Shown one piece after another: positions 20,627-29,264 of a stretch of 33,153 nt of DNA. Every line of letters begins with the position of its first letter. The stretch's first letter is position 1. The notes beneath the pieces were generated by a model that saw nothing but the letters and a program-made list of their open reading frames with translations, searched no databases and was not told the DNA's origin. A program made the translations under genes and the position numbers. The DNA is from a virus (Duplodnaviria > Heunggongvirae > Uroviricota > Caudoviricetes), in the IMG/VR virus record IMGVR_UViG_2529292972_000025. One strand, given 5' to 3'.

Positions 20627-20799
20627 TGTCAGGAGTCCTGAATAGTGATTAGAGGAGTCACATGTCGGCATCAGTTTCCCGACGATGCGCATCCTCCGCC
20701 ATCAGTCCCGGATGGCTTATCACTGACACAACAGCACCTTAGCGAATCGCGGGGCGCGACTCAGTAGCCTTGCCGTGTATTCATCACGGCGAGGTATTC

Positions 20800-22572
20800 A
20801 TGACCATCACCACAGACACCACTCTTTTACACGACCCGCGTCGTCAGGCGGCGCTGCTGTACTGGCAGGGGTTTTCCGTGCCGCAGATTGCCGCCATGTT
20901 GCAGATGAAACGCCCGACAGTGCAGAGCTGGAAACAGCGCGACGGCTGGGACAGCGTTGCCCCCATCAGCCGTGTCGAAATGAGTCTGGAAGCGCGGCTG
21001 ACCCAGCTCATCATCAAACCGCAGAAAACCGGCGGTGACTTCAAGGAAATTGACCTGCTGGGACGCCAGATTGAACGACTGGCACGGGTAAACCGTTACA
21101 GCCAGACCGGCAACGAGGCAGACCTTAATCCGAACGTCGCTAACCGCAACAAAGGCGGGCGTCGCAAACCGAAAAAGAATTTTTTCAGTGACGAGGCCAT
21201 CGAAAAGCTGGAGCAGATTTTCTTTGAGCAGTCTTTCGACTATCAGTTGCACTGGTATCGCGCCGGGCTTGAGCACCGCATCCGCGATATCCTGAAATCC
21301 CGCCAGATTGGCGCGACGTTTTATTTTTCCCGCGAGGCGCTGCTGCGTGCCCTGAAAACCGGTCATAACCAGATTTTTCTGTCGGCCAGTAAAACGCAGG
21401 CGTATGTGTTCCGCGAATACATCATCGCCTTTGCCCGGCTGGTTGACGTTGACCTGACCGGTGACCCGATTGTCCTGGGCAATAACGGCGCAAAACTGAT
21501 TTTTCTCGGCACCAACTCCAACACCGCACAAAGCCATAACGGCGACCTGTACGTCGACGAGATTTTCTGGATACCGAATTTTCAGGTACTGCGTAAGGTG
21601 GCATCAGGTATGGCCTCACAGAGTCACCTGCGCTCGACCTATTTCTCCACCCCGTCCACGCTGGCGCACGACGCCTACCCGTTCTGGTCCGGTGAACTGT
21701 TTAACCGGGGACGCGCCAGCGCCGCTGAACGCGTGGAAATCGACGTCAGTCATAACGCCCTTGCCGGTGGGCTTCTCTGTGCGGACGGCCAGTGGCGGCA
21801 GATTGTCACCATTGAGGACGCGCTGAAAGGCGGCTGCACGCTGTTCGACATTGAGCAGCTCAAACGCGAAAACAGCGCCGACGATTTTAAAAACCTGTTC
21901 ATGTGTGAATTTGTTGACGACAAGGCGTCGGTGTTCCCGTTCGAGGAGCTGCAACGCTGCATGGTCGACACACTGGAAGAATGGGAAGACTATGCACCCT
22001 TTGCCGCAAATCCGTTCGGCTCCCGCCCGGTATGGATTGGTTACGACCCGTCACACCGTGGCGACAGCGCCGGATGCGTGGTACTGGCACCGCCGGTGGT
22101 GGCCGGTGGCAAATTCAGAATACTTGAGCGTCACCAGTGGAAAGGCATGGACTTTGCCACTCAGGCGGAATCCATCCGCAAACTCACCGAAAAATACAAC
22201 GTCGAATACATCGGAATTGATGCCACCGGCCTCGGTGTCGGCGTGTTCCAGCTCGTGCGCTCGTTCTATCCCGCCGCGCGCGATATCCGCTACACGCCGG
22301 AAATGAAAACCGCAATGGTGCTCAAGGCCAAAGACGTCATCCGCCGTGGCTGTCTGGAATATGACGTCAGCGCCACCGACATCACCAGCTCGTTCATGGC
22401 TATCCGCAAGACCATGACCAGCAGCGGACGCAGCGCCACCTATGAGGCCAGCCGCAGCGAGGAAGCCAGCCACGCCGACCTCGCCTGGGCAACCATGCAC
22501 GCCCTGTTAAATGAGCCACTCACCGCCGGTATCAGCACTCCGCTGACATCCACCATTCTGGAGTTTTACTGA
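20800..22572 (+). CDS. P: Terminase large subunit (ATPase) gpP
   Basis: Start at ATG 20800 (MTITTDTTLL...) 5 nt after GAGG; ORF track starts at a TTG at 20770; divergent from O as in P2. Confidence 0.9.
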   Translation: MTITTDTTLLHDPRRQAALLYWQGFSVPQIAAMLQMKRPTVQSWKQRDGWDSVAPISRVEMSLEARLTQLIIKPQKTGGDFKEIDLLGRQIERLARVNRYSQTGNEADLNPNVANRNKGGRRKPKKNFFSDEAIEKLEQIFFEQSFDYQLHWYRAGLEHRIRDILKSRQIGATFYFSREALLRALKTGHNQIFLSASKTQAYVFREYIIAFARLVDVDLTGDPIVLGNNGAKLIFLGTNSNTAQSHNGDLYVDEIFWIPNFQVLRKVASGMASQSHLRSTYFSTPSTLAHDAYPFWSGELFNRGRASAAERVEIDVSHNALAGGLLCADGQWRQIVTIEDALKGGCTLFDIEQLKRENSADDFKNLFMCEFVDDKASVFPFEELQRCMVDTLEEWEDYAPFAANPFGSRPVWIGYDPSHRGDSAGCVVLAPPVVAGGKFRILERHQWKGMDFATQAESIRKLTEKYNVEYIGIDATGLGVGVFQLVRSFYPAARDIRYTPEMKTAMVLKAKDVIRRGCLEYDVSATDITSSFMAIRKTMTSSGRSATYEASRSEEASHADLAWATMHALLNEPLTAGISTPLTSTILEFY

Positions 22573-23606
22573 TGAGCAAGAAAAAAGGGAAAACACCGCG
22601 ACCTGCGGCAAAAACAATCACCGCCAGCGCCCCGAAAATGGAAGCATTCACCTTTGGTGAGCCGGTGCCGGTACTCGACCGCCGTGACATTCTGGATTAC
22701 GTCGAGTGCATCAGTAACGGCAGATGGTATGAGCCACCGGTCAGCTTTACCGGTCTGGCAAAAAGCCTGCGTGCTGCCGTGCATCACAGCTCACCGATTT
22801 ACGTCAAACGTAATATTCTGGCCTCGACATTTATCCCGCATCCGTGGCTTTCCCAGCAGGATTTCAGCCGCTTTGTGCTGGATTTTCTGGTCTTCGGTAA
22901 TGCGTTTCTGGAAAAGCGATACAGCACCACCGGTAAGGTCATCAGACTGGAAACCTCACCGGCAAAATATACCCGCCGTGGTGTGGAGGAGGATGTTTAC
23001 TGGTGGGTGCCGTCCTTCAACGAGCCGACAGCCTTCGCGACCGGCTCCGTGTTTCACCTGCTGGAGCCGGATATTAATCAGGAGCTGTACGGCCTGCCGG
23101 AATATCTCAGCGCCCTTAACTCTGCCTGGCTGAATGAGTCGGCCACGCTGTTCCGCCGCAAGTATTACGAAAACGGCGCACATGCCGGATACATCATGTA
23201 CGTCACCGACGCATTGCAGGATCGCGATTACATTGACTCAATCCGCGAAAACATGGCTAATTCGAAAGGCCGCAATAACTTTAAAAATCTGTTTCTCTAT
23301 GCACCGCAGGGAAAGCCAGACGGCATCAAAATTATCCCGCTCAGTGAAGTGGCAACGAAGGACGATTTTTTTAATATCAAAAAAGCCAGCGCCGCTGACC
23401 TGCTGGACGCGCACCGCATCCCCTTTCAGTTGATGGGCGGCAAGCCGGAGAACGTCGGGTCGCTGGGTGATATTGAGAAAGTGGCAAAGGTCTTTGTCCG
23501 CAATGAGCTTATCCCGTTACAGGACAGGATTCGGGAAATAAACGGCTGGCTCGGCCAGGAGGTCATCCGCTTTAAAAACTACTCACTGGACACTGACAAC
23601 GGCTGA
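22572..23606 (+). CDS. Q: Portal protein gpQ
   Basis: 344-aa ORF, ATG overlaps P stop; P2 order. Confidence 0.9.
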   Translation: MSKKKGKTPRPAAKTITASAPKMEAFTFGEPVPVLDRRDILDYVECISNGRWYEPPVSFTGLAKSLRAAVHHSSPIYVKRNILASTFIPHPWLSQQDFSRFVLDFLVFGNAFLEKRYSTTGKVIRLETSPAKYTRRGVEEDVYWWVPSFNEPTAFATGSVFHLLEPDINQELYGLPEYLSALNSAWLNESATLFRRKYYENGAHAGYIMYVTDALQDRDYIDSIRENMANSKGRNNFKNLFLYAPQGKPDGIKIIPLSEVATKDDFFNIKKASAADLLDAHRIPFQLMGGKPENVGSLGDIEKVAKVFVRNELIPLQDRIREINGWLGQEVIRFKNYSLDTDNG

Positions 23607-23794: not shown

Positions 23795-23953
23795 CGCCCG
23801 CTTCATGGGGCGGTTTTAATGCAGATGCACGAACACGCCGAAGGCGCGCCAGTACCGGCGGCGCTCACACGTGACTGGGAAGGAAAACGCATGCGATTCG
23901 ATGCAGTAATGCATGCAGAGCTAAAAATGGCAGAACATACTGAAAAAACGCAT

Positions 23954-23981
23954 AAAAAAACCGGCATTCAGGTTGCCGGTT
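23954..23981 (-). terminator. Intrinsic terminator for the minus-strand small-gene transcript
   Basis: Stem AACCGGCA (23959-23966) / TGCCGGTT (23974-23981), 7-nt loop; A-run 23954-23960 on plus gives a U-run on the minus strand. Confidence 0.6.
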
Positions 23982-24000
23982 TGAGTCGACTTCATTGTGG

Positions 24001-24102
24001 TTACTGGCCGCGCAATGCGCCAATAATACTGGTAAGGCAACAAGTGGCAACAATCAGCAAAAAAACCGTCGTCCACGGATTTTCATAAATGAGAGATAAC
24101 AT
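24001..24102 (-). CDS. Hypothetical 33-aa hydrophobic peptide (MLSLIYENPWTTVFLLIVATCCLTSIIGALRGQ)
   Basis: Not in ORF track (under 60 aa); ATG at 24102, AAGGA about 11 nt upstream, one predicted transmembrane stretch, ends just before the terminator. Confidence 0.35.
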   Translation of the reverse strand: MLSLIYENPWTTVFLLIVATCCLTSIIGALRGQ

Positions 24103-24118
24103 ATTGATAAAGATCCTT

Positions 24119-24250
24119 TTATTTGTTCATTCTGATGTGGTTTAAAAGGTGTTTGATAACGACCGTAAGCTCATCTTTACTGGCTTGCTCGACCATTTTT
24201 TCGGTGTAGCTTTCCACTTCGCGGGAACTCAGGTCGTTATTTGAGGCCAT
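24119..24250 (-). CDS. Hypothetical small protein (43 aa from ATG 24250; 64 aa if from ATG 24313)
   Basis: Open frame in cargo island; start ambiguous; MASNNDLSSREVESYTEKMVEQASKDELTVVIKHLLNHIRMNK. Confidence 0.35.
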   Translation of the reverse strand: MASNNDLSSREVESYTEKMVEQASKDELTVVIKHLLNHIRMNK

Positions 24251-24311
24251 TACAGTGAGTCTCTTTGCCCAGTCGGCATAAGGGTCTTTAATTGATGAAA
24301 GGGAATTATGC

Positions 24312-24749
24312 ATGTCCAAAAACCTCGAATTATTTAACCAGCAGACGGCTGAAATCTTTGCGGTGCTATGGGATAACTTTCCTGTACCACAAGTCATCAC
24401 CTACAAAAAATTTAACGCCGCGTTACCTGATGACTACTTTGACCAACTTAACTCACCAGAAATGAAAGCACTGAATCAGTTGCGTAGTGTGGTTGATGGC
24501 ACATTCACTTTCCTAAGCGAAAACGGCTATATTCTGTACGGAACAGACCATCAGACCGGTTTTCATGATGTGCGCCTGACCGAGAAAGCACTCGCGGTGC
24601 TCAACAAAAAACCCGAAGCACTTGGCGGTAATGAAACGATGGGAGATAAAATTATCAGTGCAGTAAAAGACGGGACTCCAGGTGTCATTGCTGGAGCAGT
24701 GACAAACCTGTTGACTCTTGGTGTTAATTTTGTGACGTCAGCTTCATAG
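24312..24749 (+). CDS. Hypothetical 145-aa cargo protein, no family recognised
   Basis: ATG at 24312 with AAGGGA Shine-Dalgarno 7 nt upstream; convergent with the RT gene. Confidence 0.6.
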   Translation: MSKNLELFNQQTAEIFAVLWDNFPVPQVITYKKFNAALPDDYFDQLNSPEMKALNQLRSVVDGTFTFLSENGYILYGTDHQTGFHDVRLTEKALAVLNKKPEALGGNETMGDKIISAVKDGTPGVIAGAVTNLLTLGVNFVTSAS

Positions 24750-24873: not shown

Positions 24874-25824
24874 TTAATTTGCAGTATTAGCCTTTAAAGT
24901 AAGCACCTTAGATTTGTAACGTTGCTCAATCACTCCCATTGAATGCAAACGACCAAAGAGCTTTTTGGCAATGATTGTTTCTCTCGCATTTTCGGCGTCT
25001 TTAATTATTTTCCAATAATCTATTTCCCTAGCCATCAAAAAATGCTGCTCATTCCTAACTTTTAATGCATTGCCTAATACAATAACTCCAGTTACCAACT
25101 TAGGCTTATCTCTGGCATATAGTTTTGTTTTCGTTGGGTGTATAACATGCCCATGCTTATTAACGATCTTACGAATTACAGCGCAGAACAATCGATTTAC
25201 GTTACTACCTGAAAAAGTGAGATCATCAACATAAACAGTCATGTTAACTCGTAACTTTTGGCAAAGTTGATATATTTCACCAAACATTCTTGAATTTGCA
25301 AAATATGCCAACGGCATACTGATGCGACTACCTGTTGGCAATCGGTCATGACAAGTACATATGTGAGACAAAACATCAGCAACATCAGATGACATTTTCA
25401 TCACCGAAAAGAAAAAAGAAAATATCATCCCTCTTGTAGTTGATGGAAAAAAAGCTTTAATATCTGTTGTCATCATCTTTTCATTATTAAGATGAGCTTT
25501 AGCATTCGTCACATTAGAGCACTTCTTCTTCCCTGAGTGCAGATATTCTGGCAAAGCAATCCGCGATAACAAACTTGCAATTCGTGTATGTACAAGTTCT
25601 AGTTTTTCTAAAGGCTTTTGTATTTTTCGTGCTTTCCCTTTTTTAGAAAGCTGCTCAAAAACGGAATAGTTTCCTTCATCTTTTCTCAAAGAGTATAAAT
25701 CATCAAGACTAACACAAAGCAAATTCGCCAGTTTTCTTTTACTTTTGAGTTTATAAAATGGCGAATCCATTATGTCATAAGATTTATTTTTAGTATTAAC
25801 TTTAAGCTTTTTCCGTTTTTTCAT
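24874..25824 (-). CDS. Reverse transcriptase, retron-type (defence-associated)
   Basis: 316-aa product with NAKAH (NAxxH), TTDIKAFFPS (motif A), LPTGSRISMPLAYFANS (motif B region), YVDD (catalytic motif C) and LVTGVIV (VTG) in the canonical order. Confidence 0.85.
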   Translation of the reverse strand: MKKRKKLKVNTKNKSYDIMDSPFYKLKSKRKLANLLCVSLDDLYSLRKDEGNYSVFEQLSKKGKARKIQKPLEKLELVHTRIASLLSRIALPEYLHSGKKKCSNVTNAKAHLNNEKMMTTDIKAFFPSTTRGMIFSFFFSVMKMSSDVADVLSHICTCHDRLPTGSRISMPLAYFANSRMFGEIYQLCQKLRVNMTVYVDDLTFSGSNVNRLFCAVIRKIVNKHGHVIHPTKTKLYARDKPKLVTGVIVLGNALKVRNEQHFLMAREIDYWKIIKDAENARETIIAKKLFGRLHSMGVIEQRYKSKVLTLKANTAN

Positions 25825-26110
25825 TTTTATTACTTACCCACTCCAGAACATCCAGAACTTTACCGGCTAAATTTAAACGCAATCGCTTAGACAAACGGCC
25901 TTGCGTGCCTAATGATTCCGAAAAGAATACTAAAGAGGATACTGGTATGTCGAAATGGGAGGCGTAACGCTCTAAGACTTCAATCGACGGTGACCAAACT
26001 CCGCTTTCAAGCGATACTATTTTGTCTTTTGGAATACCTAAAGATGAAGATAACTCAACTATTGATTCTTTATGGTATTGCCTTATTAAACGAAGGGCTT
26101 TATGTAACAT
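25802..26110 (-). CDS. XRE-family helix-turn-helix protein, RT-associated
   Basis: Start at ATG 26110 (GGAG 6 nt upstream) gives MLHKALRLIRQYHKESIVELSSSLGIPKDKIVSLESGVWSPSIEVLERYASHF...; stop overlaps RT start by 23 nt. Confidence 0.7.
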   Translation of the reverse strand: MLHKALRLIRQYHKESIVELSSSLGIPKDKIVSLESGVWSPSIEVLERYASHFDIPVSSLVFFSESLGTQGRLSKRLRLNLAGKVLDVLEWVSNKNEKTEKA

Positions 26111-26146
26111 AGGCAACTCCATGCTATTGAAACTAGGGAGGACGCA

Positions 26147-26302
26147 TTACTCATCACCCCCTTCGAAGTAGTCCAGTGCTCGAGTAACTAAATCAAACAG
26201 TCTAATACCCCATTTGATTAATTTCCAAGCGTAACCAGCCCACTTTTTCAGGTTTGACTTGTTCTGCGCCTGCTGTTCGTTGGTTAATTTATCATTCTTC
26301 AT
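26147..26302 (-). CDS. Hypothetical 51-aa protein, first gene of RT operon
   Basis: ATG at 26302 with AAGGAG Shine-Dalgarno 7 nt upstream; MKNDKLTNEQQAQNKSNLKKWAGYAWKLIKWGIRLFDLVTRALDYFEGGDE; ORF track's 130-aa version has no plausible upstream start. Confidence 0.55.
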   Translation of the reverse strand: MKNDKLTNEQQAQNKSNLKKWAGYAWKLIKWGIRLFDLVTRALDYFEGGDE

Positions 26303-26667
26303 GATTTGCTCCTTATGCCCATAGTGTGCAAACGGTATGTCTGCTCCAACACTATGGTTCGCCCTCATAAGGATGAGATTGAACAGCACTAGCCCCCTGC
26401 TCCACGAACCCTTGGTCGCCCAAAGGGTTCGAATACCCATACGCCATACCTCCTGATCCTGTGACTCCTGTCGCTGGCAGGGGCGTTGCGCGGGGTAAGT
26501 GTTAGAAAGCGTTAACTTTCCACGGGTAAAAATACCCAATTGATGGCGATATATCTCACTAACTAACCAATGTTTGCATCATAACAAGTAAACCGTTGTA
26601 TTTGCTCCCCCTGTATATGATATTTTTTCATATAAAACAAATATATAATAAGTTAAAGGCATATCAA
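26303..26667 (-). promoter_or_regulatory. Promoter plus ~330-nt structured leader of the RT operon (candidate ncRNA)
   Basis: Candidate sigma70 promoter on minus strand: -35 TTGATA (26667-26662), -10 TATATT (26645-26640); leader carries nested hairpin 26311-26372 and 9-bp-stem hairpin 26405-26431. Confidence 0.3.
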
Positions 26668-26710
26668 TGCAACATGGATATGCTTTCATTGCATTGAATT
26701 TTAAAGTGTT

Positions 26711-28999
26711 TTACATGAAAAATGACTCTTCATCTCGAAATCCGAACCACTCATTAATAACCATATACGTGAATTTTTTCCCGTCATAATTTACGGTTGC
26801 CCCACGCGCCAGCGCCTCAATCTCCCATCGCTGAGGCCTGATACCGTTCTGAGCAAGGTCAACGCGGATACGGGTAATTTGCATTCGTTCCGACCGGGTC
26901 AGTCTGGCCGATGGCGCTATTTCATGCGGTTTTAACGGGCTTCCGCTTCTTTGCTGACGGTTTGGTGTTCTCAGGTCGTGTTTTAATGCGCCCCTGAGCG
27001 CCCTCACGACCTCCGGGTCATTCCATTCGATAACACCGTCATCAACCAGATTAAGCACTGCGGCGGCGTGCTCAGAAGGTGTGGGAGCCGGTAACGAAGT
27101 ATCACCACCGGTGAGCTTTCCACAGTTATTGACAGGACTCCGAGGCGCGGCGATGCCGCTTTTTAAAGTCAAAGGCTCCACGACCGGAACTTTCGGCACA
27201 ATGCGCCAGTCCGTCGTTCTGGTGATATGAATATGACGCGCGCCGAGATGCGGCGCGTAAATGCCGACCACTCTCTCGACTTCTTCCTCGTACTCGTTAA
27301 CGTCATCCGACGGGCTACGGGCGACTCTGACAGTCTGGCAATCGCGCGGAACATTTGCCCCACCCTGCGCGCTGATATACAACGCAAAATCGCCACTGTC
27401 TGCGGCAGCACGTGCAGCCTCGACGCGTTCGTCAAACTCATCAGCAATGCTGACGCCGCGAGGCAATTTGCGTAGTTCACGGTAAGCCCCCATTGTCGGC
27501 AGGCCAACCGTTTTAAATTGCGGGATACGCCACGTTGACGCCCATGCGGTAACAGCCGCTGCAGTGTCTTTCAGCGGCCTGCCGGTATCGTTATCGAGCT
27601 GACCATCCAGTGCATAGCCGTCGATGTTTTTTGAAATGTATTTCGCGATATATCCCGCTGCACCGCCCCGGTTAAGGTGTTTTGCCTGAAAACGGTTTCG
27701 CGCAGCTCCTCTTTCATCGCCATCCTCTTTGAGCGCATAGCGACGCATGATTTCGATAATCTGGTTACGCTGGCGTGGATTACAAAAAAGCATCATATGC
27801 CAGTGCGGTGTTCCATCGTGGTGTGGCTCGACGACTCGCAAACCGTAGACCTGTAAATCATTATCCTTGAATGCCGTGCGCATCAGGCTCCAGATACGGC
27901 AGAGATAACGCTGCGCATCCTTTGGATTAAATGCCTCATCGTTCCAGCCGTGATTTAGCTGGACGGTTTTACTTTCGCCTTTTCCGACCTGACGTGTCGG
28001 GTGATACTTTGACGGCGTGGTCAGCGTGATAAACATCCCCACATCACCCTCTGCGGCGGCGTAACGCTCAATACCGGCAATGGTGTTCATCAGCTCCATC
28101 CGGCGAATTTCAGGATTAGAAATACTGCCCATCACCTTACTGATAAGGTCGATGCGTTCGCCGGTTTCCCTGTTTTCGAGGTCACACGATTTAAGAAATT
28201 CCAGATTTGCCTGGCGGCGCGCACGCACATCACGAATGGCGTGTTTACTGGCATAAGGAGAACGGTCTTTATTGACCTCCCCGACAGCAATCAGTAACGC
28301 CTCATGCCAGCGCATACGCTGGCCTTTAAGCTGATGAGTCCACCACTCATCGTTAAACAGGCGGGCAATGGCAGAATATGCCTGCCTCGTGGTCATCTGC
28401 CCTTTACGGTATTTTTTCCAGTAAAGCGGGGAAATATTGAAAGCACGTGCAGCGCCAGCAACATGACCATACAGGTGAGCCTGCGCCTCATCCGTAAACA
28501 GCGATTCTTTTTCGCCATGCGCATCCACCCAGGCATCGCAGATTTCCTCATACATCATGAAAAGCTGCGATGAGATACGGGCGGCAAACTTTTTCAGCTC
28601 CTTGTCATTCATTCCAGGCAGGCGCGCATAGTGGTCACGCTCTGCCAGAAACAGCAACGACGCGTCGGTGTTCATTTCATGGCGCTGATTCACGCGCTCA
28701 ATGCGCGGCCATAAACGACGCTGAAAAGTGGATGTGAGGAAATAAAACCCGTGCACCGGGCTTTTATTGCGCCGGATATAGTCATAGCGTGAAGTAAACA
28801 GCGAGCGCAAAAAGTAAGGCAGGCGGTTAATCGTGGATAAAACACCTTGCACCTGACGCATCTCGTCACGTGTAAGGGGTCTTTCGCGCCCGACAGCCTC
28901 ACGTGGCGCGTTCCATGCATAAGCACCGGTAAACGTCTTACCGGTGCCTGCGGCAAATGCTGACGAAGGGACAAAATGCCCGGAGGCTTTAACGGCCAT
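26711..28999 (-). CDS. A: Replication initiation protein gpA (rolling-circle endonuclease)
   Basis: Start taken at ATG 28999 (MAVKASGHFVPSSAFAAGTGK...); ORF track begins at a TTG at 29041. Confidence 0.85.
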   Translation of the reverse strand: MAVKASGHFVPSSAFAAGTGKTFTGAYAWNAPREAVGRERPLTRDEMRQVQGVLSTINRLPYFLRSLFTSRYDYIRRNKSPVHGFYFLTSTFQRRLWPRIERVNQRHEMNTDASLLFLAERDHYARLPGMNDKELKKFAARISSQLFMMYEEICDAWVDAHGEKESLFTDEAQAHLYGHVAGAARAFNISPLYWKKYRKGQMTTRQAYSAIARLFNDEWWTHQLKGQRMRWHEALLIAVGEVNKDRSPYASKHAIRDVRARRQANLEFLKSCDLENRETGERIDLISKVMGSISNPEIRRMELMNTIAGIERYAAAEGDVGMFITLTTPSKYHPTRQVGKGESKTVQLNHGWNDEAFNPKDAQRYLCRIWSLMRTAFKDNDLQVYGLRVVEPHHDGTPHWHMMLFCNPRQRNQIIEIMRRYALKEDGDERGAARNRFQAKHLNRGGAAGYIAKYISKNIDGYALDGQLDNDTGRPLKDTAAAVTAWASTWRIPQFKTVGLPTMGAYRELRKLPRGVSIADEFDERVEAARAAADSGDFALYISAQGGANVPRDCQTVRVARSPSDDVNEYEEEVERVVGIYAPHLGARHIHITRTTDWRIVPKVPVVEPLTLKSGIAAPRSPVNNCGKLTGGDTSLPAPTPSEHAAAVLNLVDDGVIEWNDPEVVRALRGALKHDLRTPNRQQRSGSPLKPHEIAPSARLTRSERMQITRIRVDLAQNGIRPQRWEIEALARGATVNYDGKKFTYMVINEWFGFRDEESFFM

Positions 29000-29264
29000 G
29001 TGTGCCAAAAGCCTCTGAACAACGCTTGCTGAGTTGCTCAACCTGCGCGTTTAAATCGGCAAAAGATTTTGCGCTTCCGGTCAGAATATCGTGATGCATC
29101 AGGCCGGAAACGAGCTGGCTTAATTTCGGGTAATAACCAACCACCGCCAGCCATTCCTGACCGGCGTTTTTACCGCTTTCCGCTCTCTTTTTCTCGTGGA
29201 GAATAAACTGAAAGCTGTCACTGGTAACGACATAACGTTCGCCAATTTCAATACGAATACTCAT
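28989..29264 (-). CDS. P2 orf83-like protein
   Basis: 91-aa ORF, GGAG Shine-Dalgarno, overlaps A start; position as in P2. Confidence 0.6.
   Translation of the reverse strand: MSIRIEIGERYVVTSDSFQFILHEKKRAESGKNAGQEWLAVVGYYPKLSQLVSGLMHHDILTGSAKSFADLNAQVEQLSKRCSEAFGTHGR

Follow-up and report, generated by a model that had tools for sequence, protein, structure and literature searches.

A probable Type VI retron hybrid RNA in the leader of a reverse transcriptase operon from a P2-like prophage of Escherichia coli O157:H7

The DNA analyzed here is a 33,153-nucleotide (nt) stretch from a virus of the Caudoviricetes (IMG/VR record IMGVR_UViG_2529292972_000025; hereafter the window), in which a hairpin-rich leader at positions 26303 to 26667 precedes a minus-strand operon with a reverse transcriptase (RT) gene. 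An initial annotation, made from the letters alone, had proposed that this leader holds a retron msr/msd RNA. We find that the operon is, by its gene content, a Type VI retron and that the leader is homologous, in sequence and predicted structure, to the hybrid RNA (hyRNA) of Retron-Vpa2, which is an RT template in that system; both findings uphold the proposal that an msr/msd-type RNA is encoded here. Very probably, the region, which sits in the variable cargo hotspot of a P2-like prophage, makes up the 5' non-coding portion of a Type VI retron hyRNA. This kind of hyRNA was already described in 2025, and the leader of the window represents an additional member. Recognizing it as such would give the locus a defense function and predicts a multicopy single-stranded DNA (msDNA) of ~93 nt together with a small toxic effector. 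The locus would also be a native E. coli, prophage-borne example of the Vpa2-type mechanism, which was worked out with a Vibrio retron in heterologous expression (bioRxiv 10.1101/2025.10.22.683967). What the comparative set adds is a covarying antisense copy of the regulatory repeat near the 5' end of the RNA.

Downstream of the leader, the genes follow in the order SP, HTH, and RT, which is the published Type VI operon order:

26147-26302, minus strand: SP gene, 51 amino acids (aa), predicted toxic effector; ATG at 26302-26300; RefSeq WP_001302990.1; third arm of the RNA
25802-26110, minus strand: helix-turn-helix (HTH) gene, 102 aa from the RefSeq start; PADLOC HTH_VI, 7.7e-31
24874-25824, minus strand: retron RT gene, 316 aa; PADLOC RT_VI, 4.1e-105, 349 bits

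The best PADLOC matches of the RT were all retron RT models, with the runner-up family scoring 152 bits compared to 349 bits for RT_VI, and the protein carries the YVDD, NAKAH, and VTG motifs by which the retron clade is recognized. As in Type VI systems, which have a clade 3 RT and an HTH gene of the Cro/C1 type, the HTH gene lies immediately upstream of and overlaps the RT gene, its stop codon overlapping the RT start codon. On the basis of the RT_VI and HTH_VI assignments, the operon is therefore classified as a Type VI retron. The HTH frame has two possible starts, ATG 26110 (RefSeq) and ATG 26122 (106 aa; the start used in a program-made list of open reading frames [ORFs]); the former is preceded, at a distance of seven bases, by a GGAG site and puts a conserved Arg at position 7, like Vpa2. 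ORFs in the SP position encode 47 to 55 aa in the closer relatives and up to ~65 aa in more distant ones, and Gln11 is the only residue after Met1 that is invariant among relatives.

In Retron-Vpa2 of Vibrio parahaemolyticus, msr-msd, the SP coding sequence, and two stem-loops that contain the SP ribosome-binding site and AUG are all parts of one hyRNA of ~470 nt. This RNA is closed by its 3' end through a1/a2-like pairing and was shown to be the RT template (10.1101/2025.10.22.683967). The Vpa2 msDNA was undetectable at rest and appeared upon triggering in two forms, of 63 nt and of 86 nt, the latter being extended by 23 nt at its 5' end. SP translation requires this msDNA, specifically its 5' stem-loop, and a 7-nt direct repeat present in the msd loop and the switch loop was proposed to mediate it; SP was shown to be toxic, and HTH to be needed for viability (10.1101/2025.10.22.683967). 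Among our loci, one from V. parahaemolyticus (L091; RT 54% identical to that of the window) encodes a 55-aa SP with K15, I39, F43, and F45 and an HTH protein with R7; these are residues that were mutated in Vpa2, so this locus was used as the Vpa2 reference.

Conserved structure of the leader RNA

The hairpins reported in the initial annotation are present in the plus-strand sequence where it had placed them. In the nested hairpin, the outer stem pairs CCTTATG (26311-26317) with CATAAGG (26366-26372), and the inner stem pairs CCATAGTGT (26319-26327) with ACACTATGG (26349-26357) around a 21-nt loop; a separate 9-bp hairpin joins CGAACCCTT (26405-26413) and AAGGGTTCG (26423-26431). Structure prediction of the minus strand, suggested as a check together with the hairpins, agreed with a structured leader: the RNA 26710-26290 had a minimum free energy (MFE) of -133.5 kcal/mol compared to -107 ± 5 kcal/mol for shuffled sequences (z = -5.3), and none of 100 shuffles was as stable. 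Folded by itself, the nested hairpin reached -25.8 kcal/mol (z = -2.8; 0 of 200 shuffles as good). With the exception of an inverted repeat at 26664-26697, the leader hairpin elements are kept with covariation in relatives of other genera, and the MFE folds of the window and the Vpa2 reference show the same three-arm architecture.

The comparative set comprised 95 related loci, gathered as RT homologues, by a species-representative genome scan, and by exact-protein look-ups with E. coli variants. A 21-locus alignment covered Escherichia, Serratia, Yersinia, Dickeya, Acerihabitans, Providencia, Xenorhabdus, Vibrio, and Shewanella; a structure was written from the fold of the window, and its pairs were then counted on this alignment, in which near-invariant blocks alternate with variable stems. 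Base pairs were formed in 91.4% of cells, compared to 39 to 55% when the partners were slid by 1 to 3 columns, and changes on both sides of the pair were compensatory in 33 of 69 pairs; none of 500 shuffles reached the observed values, a control that is partly inflated by deriving the structure from one of the aligned sequences, of which the compensatory counts are independent. Substitutions in the leader follow base pairing rather than codon positions, and indels are not multiples of three.

Covariance models were built from relatives with an RT identity of ≤75%, with the window and its E. coli variants excluded. Model R1 gave a single match in the 33-kb window, at 26482-26558 on the minus strand (69.8 bits, E = 6.6e-16), as did the other covariance model, at 26300-26451 on the minus strand (137.4 bits, E = 3.1e-35). 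Thus, the covariance-model search, another check proposed at the outset, places the RNA inside the leader and nowhere else in the window; in the remaining loci, the models match only the gene strand upstream of SP. The RNAalifold structure of model R2 was incomplete, without the conserved 9-bp hairpin and the stem over the Shine-Dalgarno (SD) site, and R2 was therefore used for searching only and not for pair counts. A scan of the whole window at Rfam gathering thresholds returned only CyaR at 1445-1530, and a permissive Rfam scan of the leader gave a best E value of 0.77, far below gathering scores; neither scan returned a retron family or any other family of relevance.

The elements of the RNA, from 5' to 3' and preceded by a promoter candidate, are as follows:

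26640-26667, minus strand: sigma-70-like promoter candidate; -35 TTGATA (26667-26662), 16-nt spacer, -10 TATATT (26645-26640); 10 of 12 consensus matches
26482-26558, minus strand: conserved 5' core (msr-like) with UGAGAUA motif, 5' element, hairpins 1 and 2, and the start of the msd stem; match of model R1
26558-26552, minus strand: UGAGAUA motif
26545-26549, minus strand: 5' element UCGCC, reverse complement of both GGCGA repeats; fixed column of the model-based alignment
26523-26538, minus strand: hairpin 1 (UGGGUA...UACCCG); 4 of 6 pairs compensatory, 99% of cells pair
26504-26521, minus strand: hairpin 2 (GGAAAG...CUUUCU); near-invariant, 99% of cells pair
26435-26496, minus strand: long variable stem-loop, predicted main msd template; ACCC/GGGU pairs kept, interior varying in length and sequence
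26405-26431, minus strand: 9-bp hairpin whose loop carries direct repeat 1 (GGGCGA, 26421-26416); would form the 5' stem-loop of the msDNA
26393-26404, minus strand: inverted repeat arm IR1 (UGGAGC-A-GGGGG), 5' arm of an a1/a2-like long-range repeat; pairs with 26128-26140
26381-26388, minus strand: arm-closing helix, 5' strand UGCUGUUC; pairs with SP codons 9-11 at 26271-26278
26309-26372, minus strand: translational switch, outer stem CCUUAUG/CAUAAGG over the SD sequence AAGGAG (26314-26309)
26128-26140, minus strand: inverted repeat arm IR2 (CUCCC-UA-GUUUCA), 3' arm of the long-range repeat; between the SP stop and HTH start codons

Within the msr-like core, hairpin 2 is kept across Enterobacterales, Vibrio, Xenorhabdus, and Shewanella. 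The long variable stem-loop is equivalent in position to the stem covered by the Vpa2 msDNA, and the 9-bp hairpin that follows is conserved in stem and sequence, with CGAACC/GGUUCG alternating with CGCAAC/GUUGCG among relatives. Of the extent first assigned to the msr/msd, the portion from ~26405 to 26558 is retained within the leader, whereas the nested hairpin at 26311-26372 is better described as the SP translational switch and not as msr/msd. In that switch, AAGGAG is located six bases ahead of the ATG and has its AAGG within the outer stem, and the SP AUG is only weakly paired in the MFE fold; direct repeat 2 (GGGCGA, 26364-26359) occupies the internal loop, and the inner hairpin is variable, with 13 of 15 inner pairs covarying. 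An anti-SD/SD duplex of -9 to -13 kcal/mol was found in all 18 distinct relatives, with a mean of -10.96 kcal/mol for a locus's own partners compared to -8.86 kcal/mol when partners were exchanged between loci; none of the permutation means was as low as that of the own partners. The earlier statement that the nested hairpin sequesters part of the AAGGAG site is thus confirmed, and since the SD stem occurs in 18 of 18 relatives, this sequestration is a conserved feature of the family.

The helix that closes the second arm is paired in 100% of the cells of the alignment and shows compensatory changes at 3 of its 8 pairs (UGCUGUUC/GAACAGCA, ..GGUU/AACC.., and ..GAUC/GAUC..). SP codons 9-11 read E-Q-Q in the window, and N-Q-Q or D-Q-Q variants are matched by compensatory upstream changes. 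Pairing of these codons with the non-coding RNA may explain the invariance of Gln11.

The initial annotation could not place a1/a2 repeats. A covarying pair was located here in IR1 and IR2 (GGGAG/CUCCC, GGGGG/CCCCC, and GGGAA/UUCCC; UGGAGC/GUUUCA versus UCGAGAC/GUUUCGA); IR1 abuts the 3' end of the predicted msd, and the repeat had been missed because its second arm lies past the SP gene. Most likely, the functional RNA continues past 26303, through the SP gene, to ~26128. An 8-nt direct repeat, UGGAGCAG, is also present at 26396-26403 (in IR1) and 26340-26347 (in the apical loop region of the switch); it was seen only in P2-borne variants of E. coli, and L084 has it over 9 nt. It may be due to chance or be an alternative partner of IR2.

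Predicted mechanism and competing explanations

The two GGGCGA repeats lie 119 and 62 nt upstream of the SP start codon, matching the description of the Vpa2 repeats in the preprint. By position, the equivalent of the 86-nt Vpa2 product would be a predicted msDNA of 93 nt, plus strand 26405-26497, made of the long stem and the conserved hairpin. When this segment was folded as DNA, it formed a 5' stem-loop and a long stem (-22.4 kcal/mol, z = -3.8), and the TCGCCC in its 5' stem-loop (26416-26421, plus strand) is complementary to the GGGCGA of the switch (26364-26359).

These features suggest the following model. A single minus-strand transcript would start at ~26585-26633 and end at ~26128. 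Its first arm would hold the msr-like core (26504-26558) and then the reverse transcription template (~26405-26497), its second arm (26309-26388) the hairpin switch that buries the SP SD site, and its third arm the SP coding sequence, with IR1 (26393-26404) and IR2 (26128-26140) closing the RNA in the manner of a1/a2. At rest, as in Vpa2, little msDNA would accumulate and SP would not be translated. Phage recombination or anti-RecBCD functions would let msDNA accumulate, the TCGCCC of its 5' stem-loop would pair with the GGGCGA of the switch loop, the switch would open, and SP, a small predicted toxic effector, would be made and stop growth of the infected cell.

The retron of the window and Retron-Vpa2 both have the SP-HTH-RT operon, with HTH Arg7 kept, and a three-arm RNA whose 3' end pairs back, with the SD site in a stem and direct repeats in the msd and switch loops. 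In both RNAs, two small 5' hairpins are followed by a long variable stem, the conserved hairpin with the loop repeat, and IR1; next come the hairpin that hides the SD site and holds the second repeat, then the SP coding arm, and finally IR2 past the stop codon. The SP is short in both (51 aa here and 55 aa in Vpa2), with a hydrophobic C-terminal helix and an acidic tail. The two differ in RT (54% identical), in the repeat (GGGCGA here versus GGACGAA in Vpa2), and in the sequence and length of the long stem, the msDNA being ~93 nt by prediction here compared to 86 nt; the retron of the window, known from sequence, belongs to an E. coli host and a P2-like prophage.

A canonical retron such as Retron-Eco1 (Ec86) also has a structured RNA adjacent to the RT gene, with small msr-type hairpins, then a long msd stem-loop, and a closing inverted repeat. 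However, its a1 is at the 5' end beside the priming G and its RNA is purely non-coding, whereas here the arm in the role of a1 is 3' of an embedded toxin gene; moreover, in the Vpa2 model, msDNA activates the toxin rather than restraining it. Riboregulators that sequester a ribosome-binding site and are opened in trans include DsrA-rpoS and synthetic toehold switches. The RNA of the window resembles these in its SD-hiding hairpin and in the proposed opening by a short complementary strand in the loop, but the proposed activator here is a DNA reverse-transcribed from the same RNA molecule.

Several observations weigh against a simple transfer of the Vpa2 model to the window. The repeats are exact over 6 nt (GGGCGA) and not 7, or 7 of 8 when the flanks are counted, and next to IR2 or the 5' element the 21-locus alignment has no conserved priming guanosine. 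The V. parahaemolyticus reference was equated with Retron-Vpa2 solely by its SP and HTH residues and was not confirmed by accession (WP_069548583.1 is not among the listed cluster accessions), and the motif of its RT is YVDD, compared to YADD in the preprint. In E. coli variants with 96% and 84% identity over the entire locus, the hexamers of the sigma-70-like site listed above are not conserved. The promoter scan found 3 sites compared to 2.5 expected by chance, with no site in the Vpa2-like locus and none on the retron strand of an 84% variant; given this near-chance count and the unconserved hexamers, the transcription start is therefore unproven. Finally, Retron-Sen3 works differently, and the Vpa2 mechanism cannot be assumed for every Type VI member.

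Retron-Sen3 is a Salmonella Type VI retron of the cl2075 lineage, in another RT subclade, with a 79-aa SP (bioRxiv 10.64898/2026.04.27.721009). Its single-stranded DNA (ssDNA) and SP are constitutive, and its HTH protein is an antitoxin that acts post-translationally in a system of RecBCD surveillance (10.64898/2026.04.27.721009). The main alternative for the window is the same Type VI RNA operating in this manner: ssDNA and SP would be made constitutively, HTH would neutralize SP after translation, loss of RecBCD would be the trigger, and the SD hairpin would only tune translation. In its favor, at least one Type VI retron, Sen3, is published as operating in this way, its lineage also has the SD site in an RNA stem, and HTH is needed for viability in Vpa2 as well. 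Nonetheless, we consider it improbable: the window SP, at 51 aa, lacks the N-terminal extension of ~25 residues found in the 79-aa cl2075 SPs, and the window RNA aligns with that of Vpa2 over its whole length, both direct repeats included. In addition, Retron-Eco12, a Type VI relative of Vpa2 from E. coli that is reported to defend against lambda vir, made no detectable msDNA at rest (10.1101/2025.10.22.683967). The Vpa2 mechanism is the most likely one for the window.

Far less probable still is an ordinary structured 5' untranslated region or attenuator, or a P2 element downstream of gene A, with no role as a reverse transcription template. Such a reading would account for the lack of a matching Rfam family and for Type VI retrons having given no detectable msDNA in standard assays, but the RNA accompanies the RT, HTH, and SP genes in non-phage contexts, is homologous to the region where the Vpa2 msDNA maps, and has covarying helices without a role in a simple attenuator, i.e., the long stem and IR1/IR2 across the SP gene. 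That the leader is coding, with the ORF 26147-26539 (130 aa, TTG start), which overlaps it and is not conserved, as a longer form of the small protein, can practically be dismissed, for although the window has 92 open codons ahead of the SP ATG in this frame, the corresponding stretch varies from 3 to 92 codons among relatives, indels are non-triplet, substitutions track base pairs, and ATG 26302 has a conserved AAGGAG and is the start of the 51-aa product called by RefSeq.

A 5' element complementary to the direct repeats

The 5' element UCGCC occupies a fixed column of a model-based alignment that is blind to the repeats, and it covaries with them: UCGCC is found with GGCGA, UCGUC with GGACGA (Vpa2), and (A/G)UCACCA with UGGUGA(U/C). 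Further variants are UCUCGC/GCGAGA, UUCACC/GGUGAA, and UUCGCU/AGCGAA, giving at least six sequence variants in all. In an alignment-free test, 54 non-redundant loci were searched for k-mers present in both repeat zones and, as the reverse complement, in the 5' zone. At k = 5, such a triple occurred in 41 loci, compared to a mean of 14 (maximum 25) when the 5' zone was shuffled and a mean of 24 (maximum 33) when 5' zones were swapped; at k = 6, it occurred in 13 loci, compared to means of 1.9 (maximum 6) and 4.3 (maximum 10), respectively. The duplex energies of the 5' element with the two repeats are nearly equal (-10.0 versus -10.7 kcal/mol), repeat 2 being the better partner in 23 loci and repeat 1 in 16. 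Nested folding pairs the 5' element with neither repeat and leaves the three sites largely single-stranded, so any contact would be a pseudoknot or belong to an alternative conformer. In the two Type VI preprints (Vpa2 and Sen3), compared by their running text, such an element is not mentioned.

We tentatively propose, as a possibility rather than a probability, that the hyRNA carries a third, antisense copy of the regulatory repeat and that derepression of the toxin is gated by an RNA-RNA contact, beyond msDNA-RNA pairing alone. In sequence, the 5' element equals the predicted activating motif of the msDNA. At rest, it would occupy the repeat of the msd loop or that of the switch loop, from which it would be freed or displaced when reverse transcription takes place or when msDNA binds its template. 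Such a contact would bear on how msDNA opens the switch, a step that the Vpa2 authors call unresolved (10.1101/2025.10.22.683967). The 5' element might also set up an alternative a1/a2-like duplex for priming; the existence of a short and a long msDNA could be explained in this way. A rival reading takes the 5' element and the two repeats as double-stranded DNA operators that would be bound by the HTH protein.

Genomic context and occurrence

The carrier of the retron is a P2-like prophage of E. coli O157:H7, and the locus sequence is identical in strain FRIK944. The retron lies between gene A and the portal gene, a position that is the variable cargo locus of P2-like phages, where defense systems, retrons included, are known (PMC9122126). 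The flanking phage genes are as follows:

26711-29041, minus strand: replication gene A
~20770-23606: portal and terminase genes

Copies related to the locus were found in 100 of 5,426 complete E. coli genomes, 28 of them with an identity of ≥95%. In the six locus copies whose annotation was opened, the O157:H7 copy included, RT, HTH, and a hypothetical protein were annotated in all six, and an RNA feature in none.

A homologous leader RNA also occurs outside P2 prophages, beside yeiP in E. coli C5 and in Dickeya, Vibrio, and Providencia, and therefore belongs to the retron and not to the phage. The locus of E. coli C5 (L002; NZ_CP010122.1, 2219256-2220685) represents a second E. coli Type VI retron lineage, with an RT 65% and an SP 55% identical to those of the window; it adjoins yeiP, lies in no prophage, and has a leader RNA homologous to that of the window. 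Either the retron of the window or this second lineage could be Retron-Eco12, for which neither the main text nor the text-form supplements of the preprint give a sequence or accession.

Upstream of the conserved RNA, just past the gene A stop and overlapping the -35 hexamer, a 9-bp inverted repeat pairs TCAATGCAA (26664-26672) with TTGCATTGA (26689-26697) across N16. The hairpin that had been annotated at 26665-26696 therefore exists as an inverted repeat, but it is not conserved and lies outside the conserved RNA element: most relatives, the 96% and 84% E. coli variants included, have no counterpart, whereas the V. parahaemolyticus reference has a similar palindrome (701-726) upstream of its Vpa2-like RNA. 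A role of this palindrome as an HTH operator was rejected as a family feature, most loci having no counterpart.

Between the RT and portal genes, further small ORFs lie at 24119-24749 and 23819-24088. A 145-aa protein, WP_000042038.1 (24312-24749), is encoded on the strand opposite to the retron and had no Pfam or PADLOC match, nor did the ORF 24119-24400. In an 84% variant of the locus, an FRG-domain gene takes the place of these small ORFs, and the P2 hotspot may thus hold a second cargo here. The Rfam match at 1445-1530 (100.7 bits), close to the left end of the window, is a CyaR/RyeE small RNA gene; this part is presumed to belong to the host chromosome, at the edge of the prophage or close to it.

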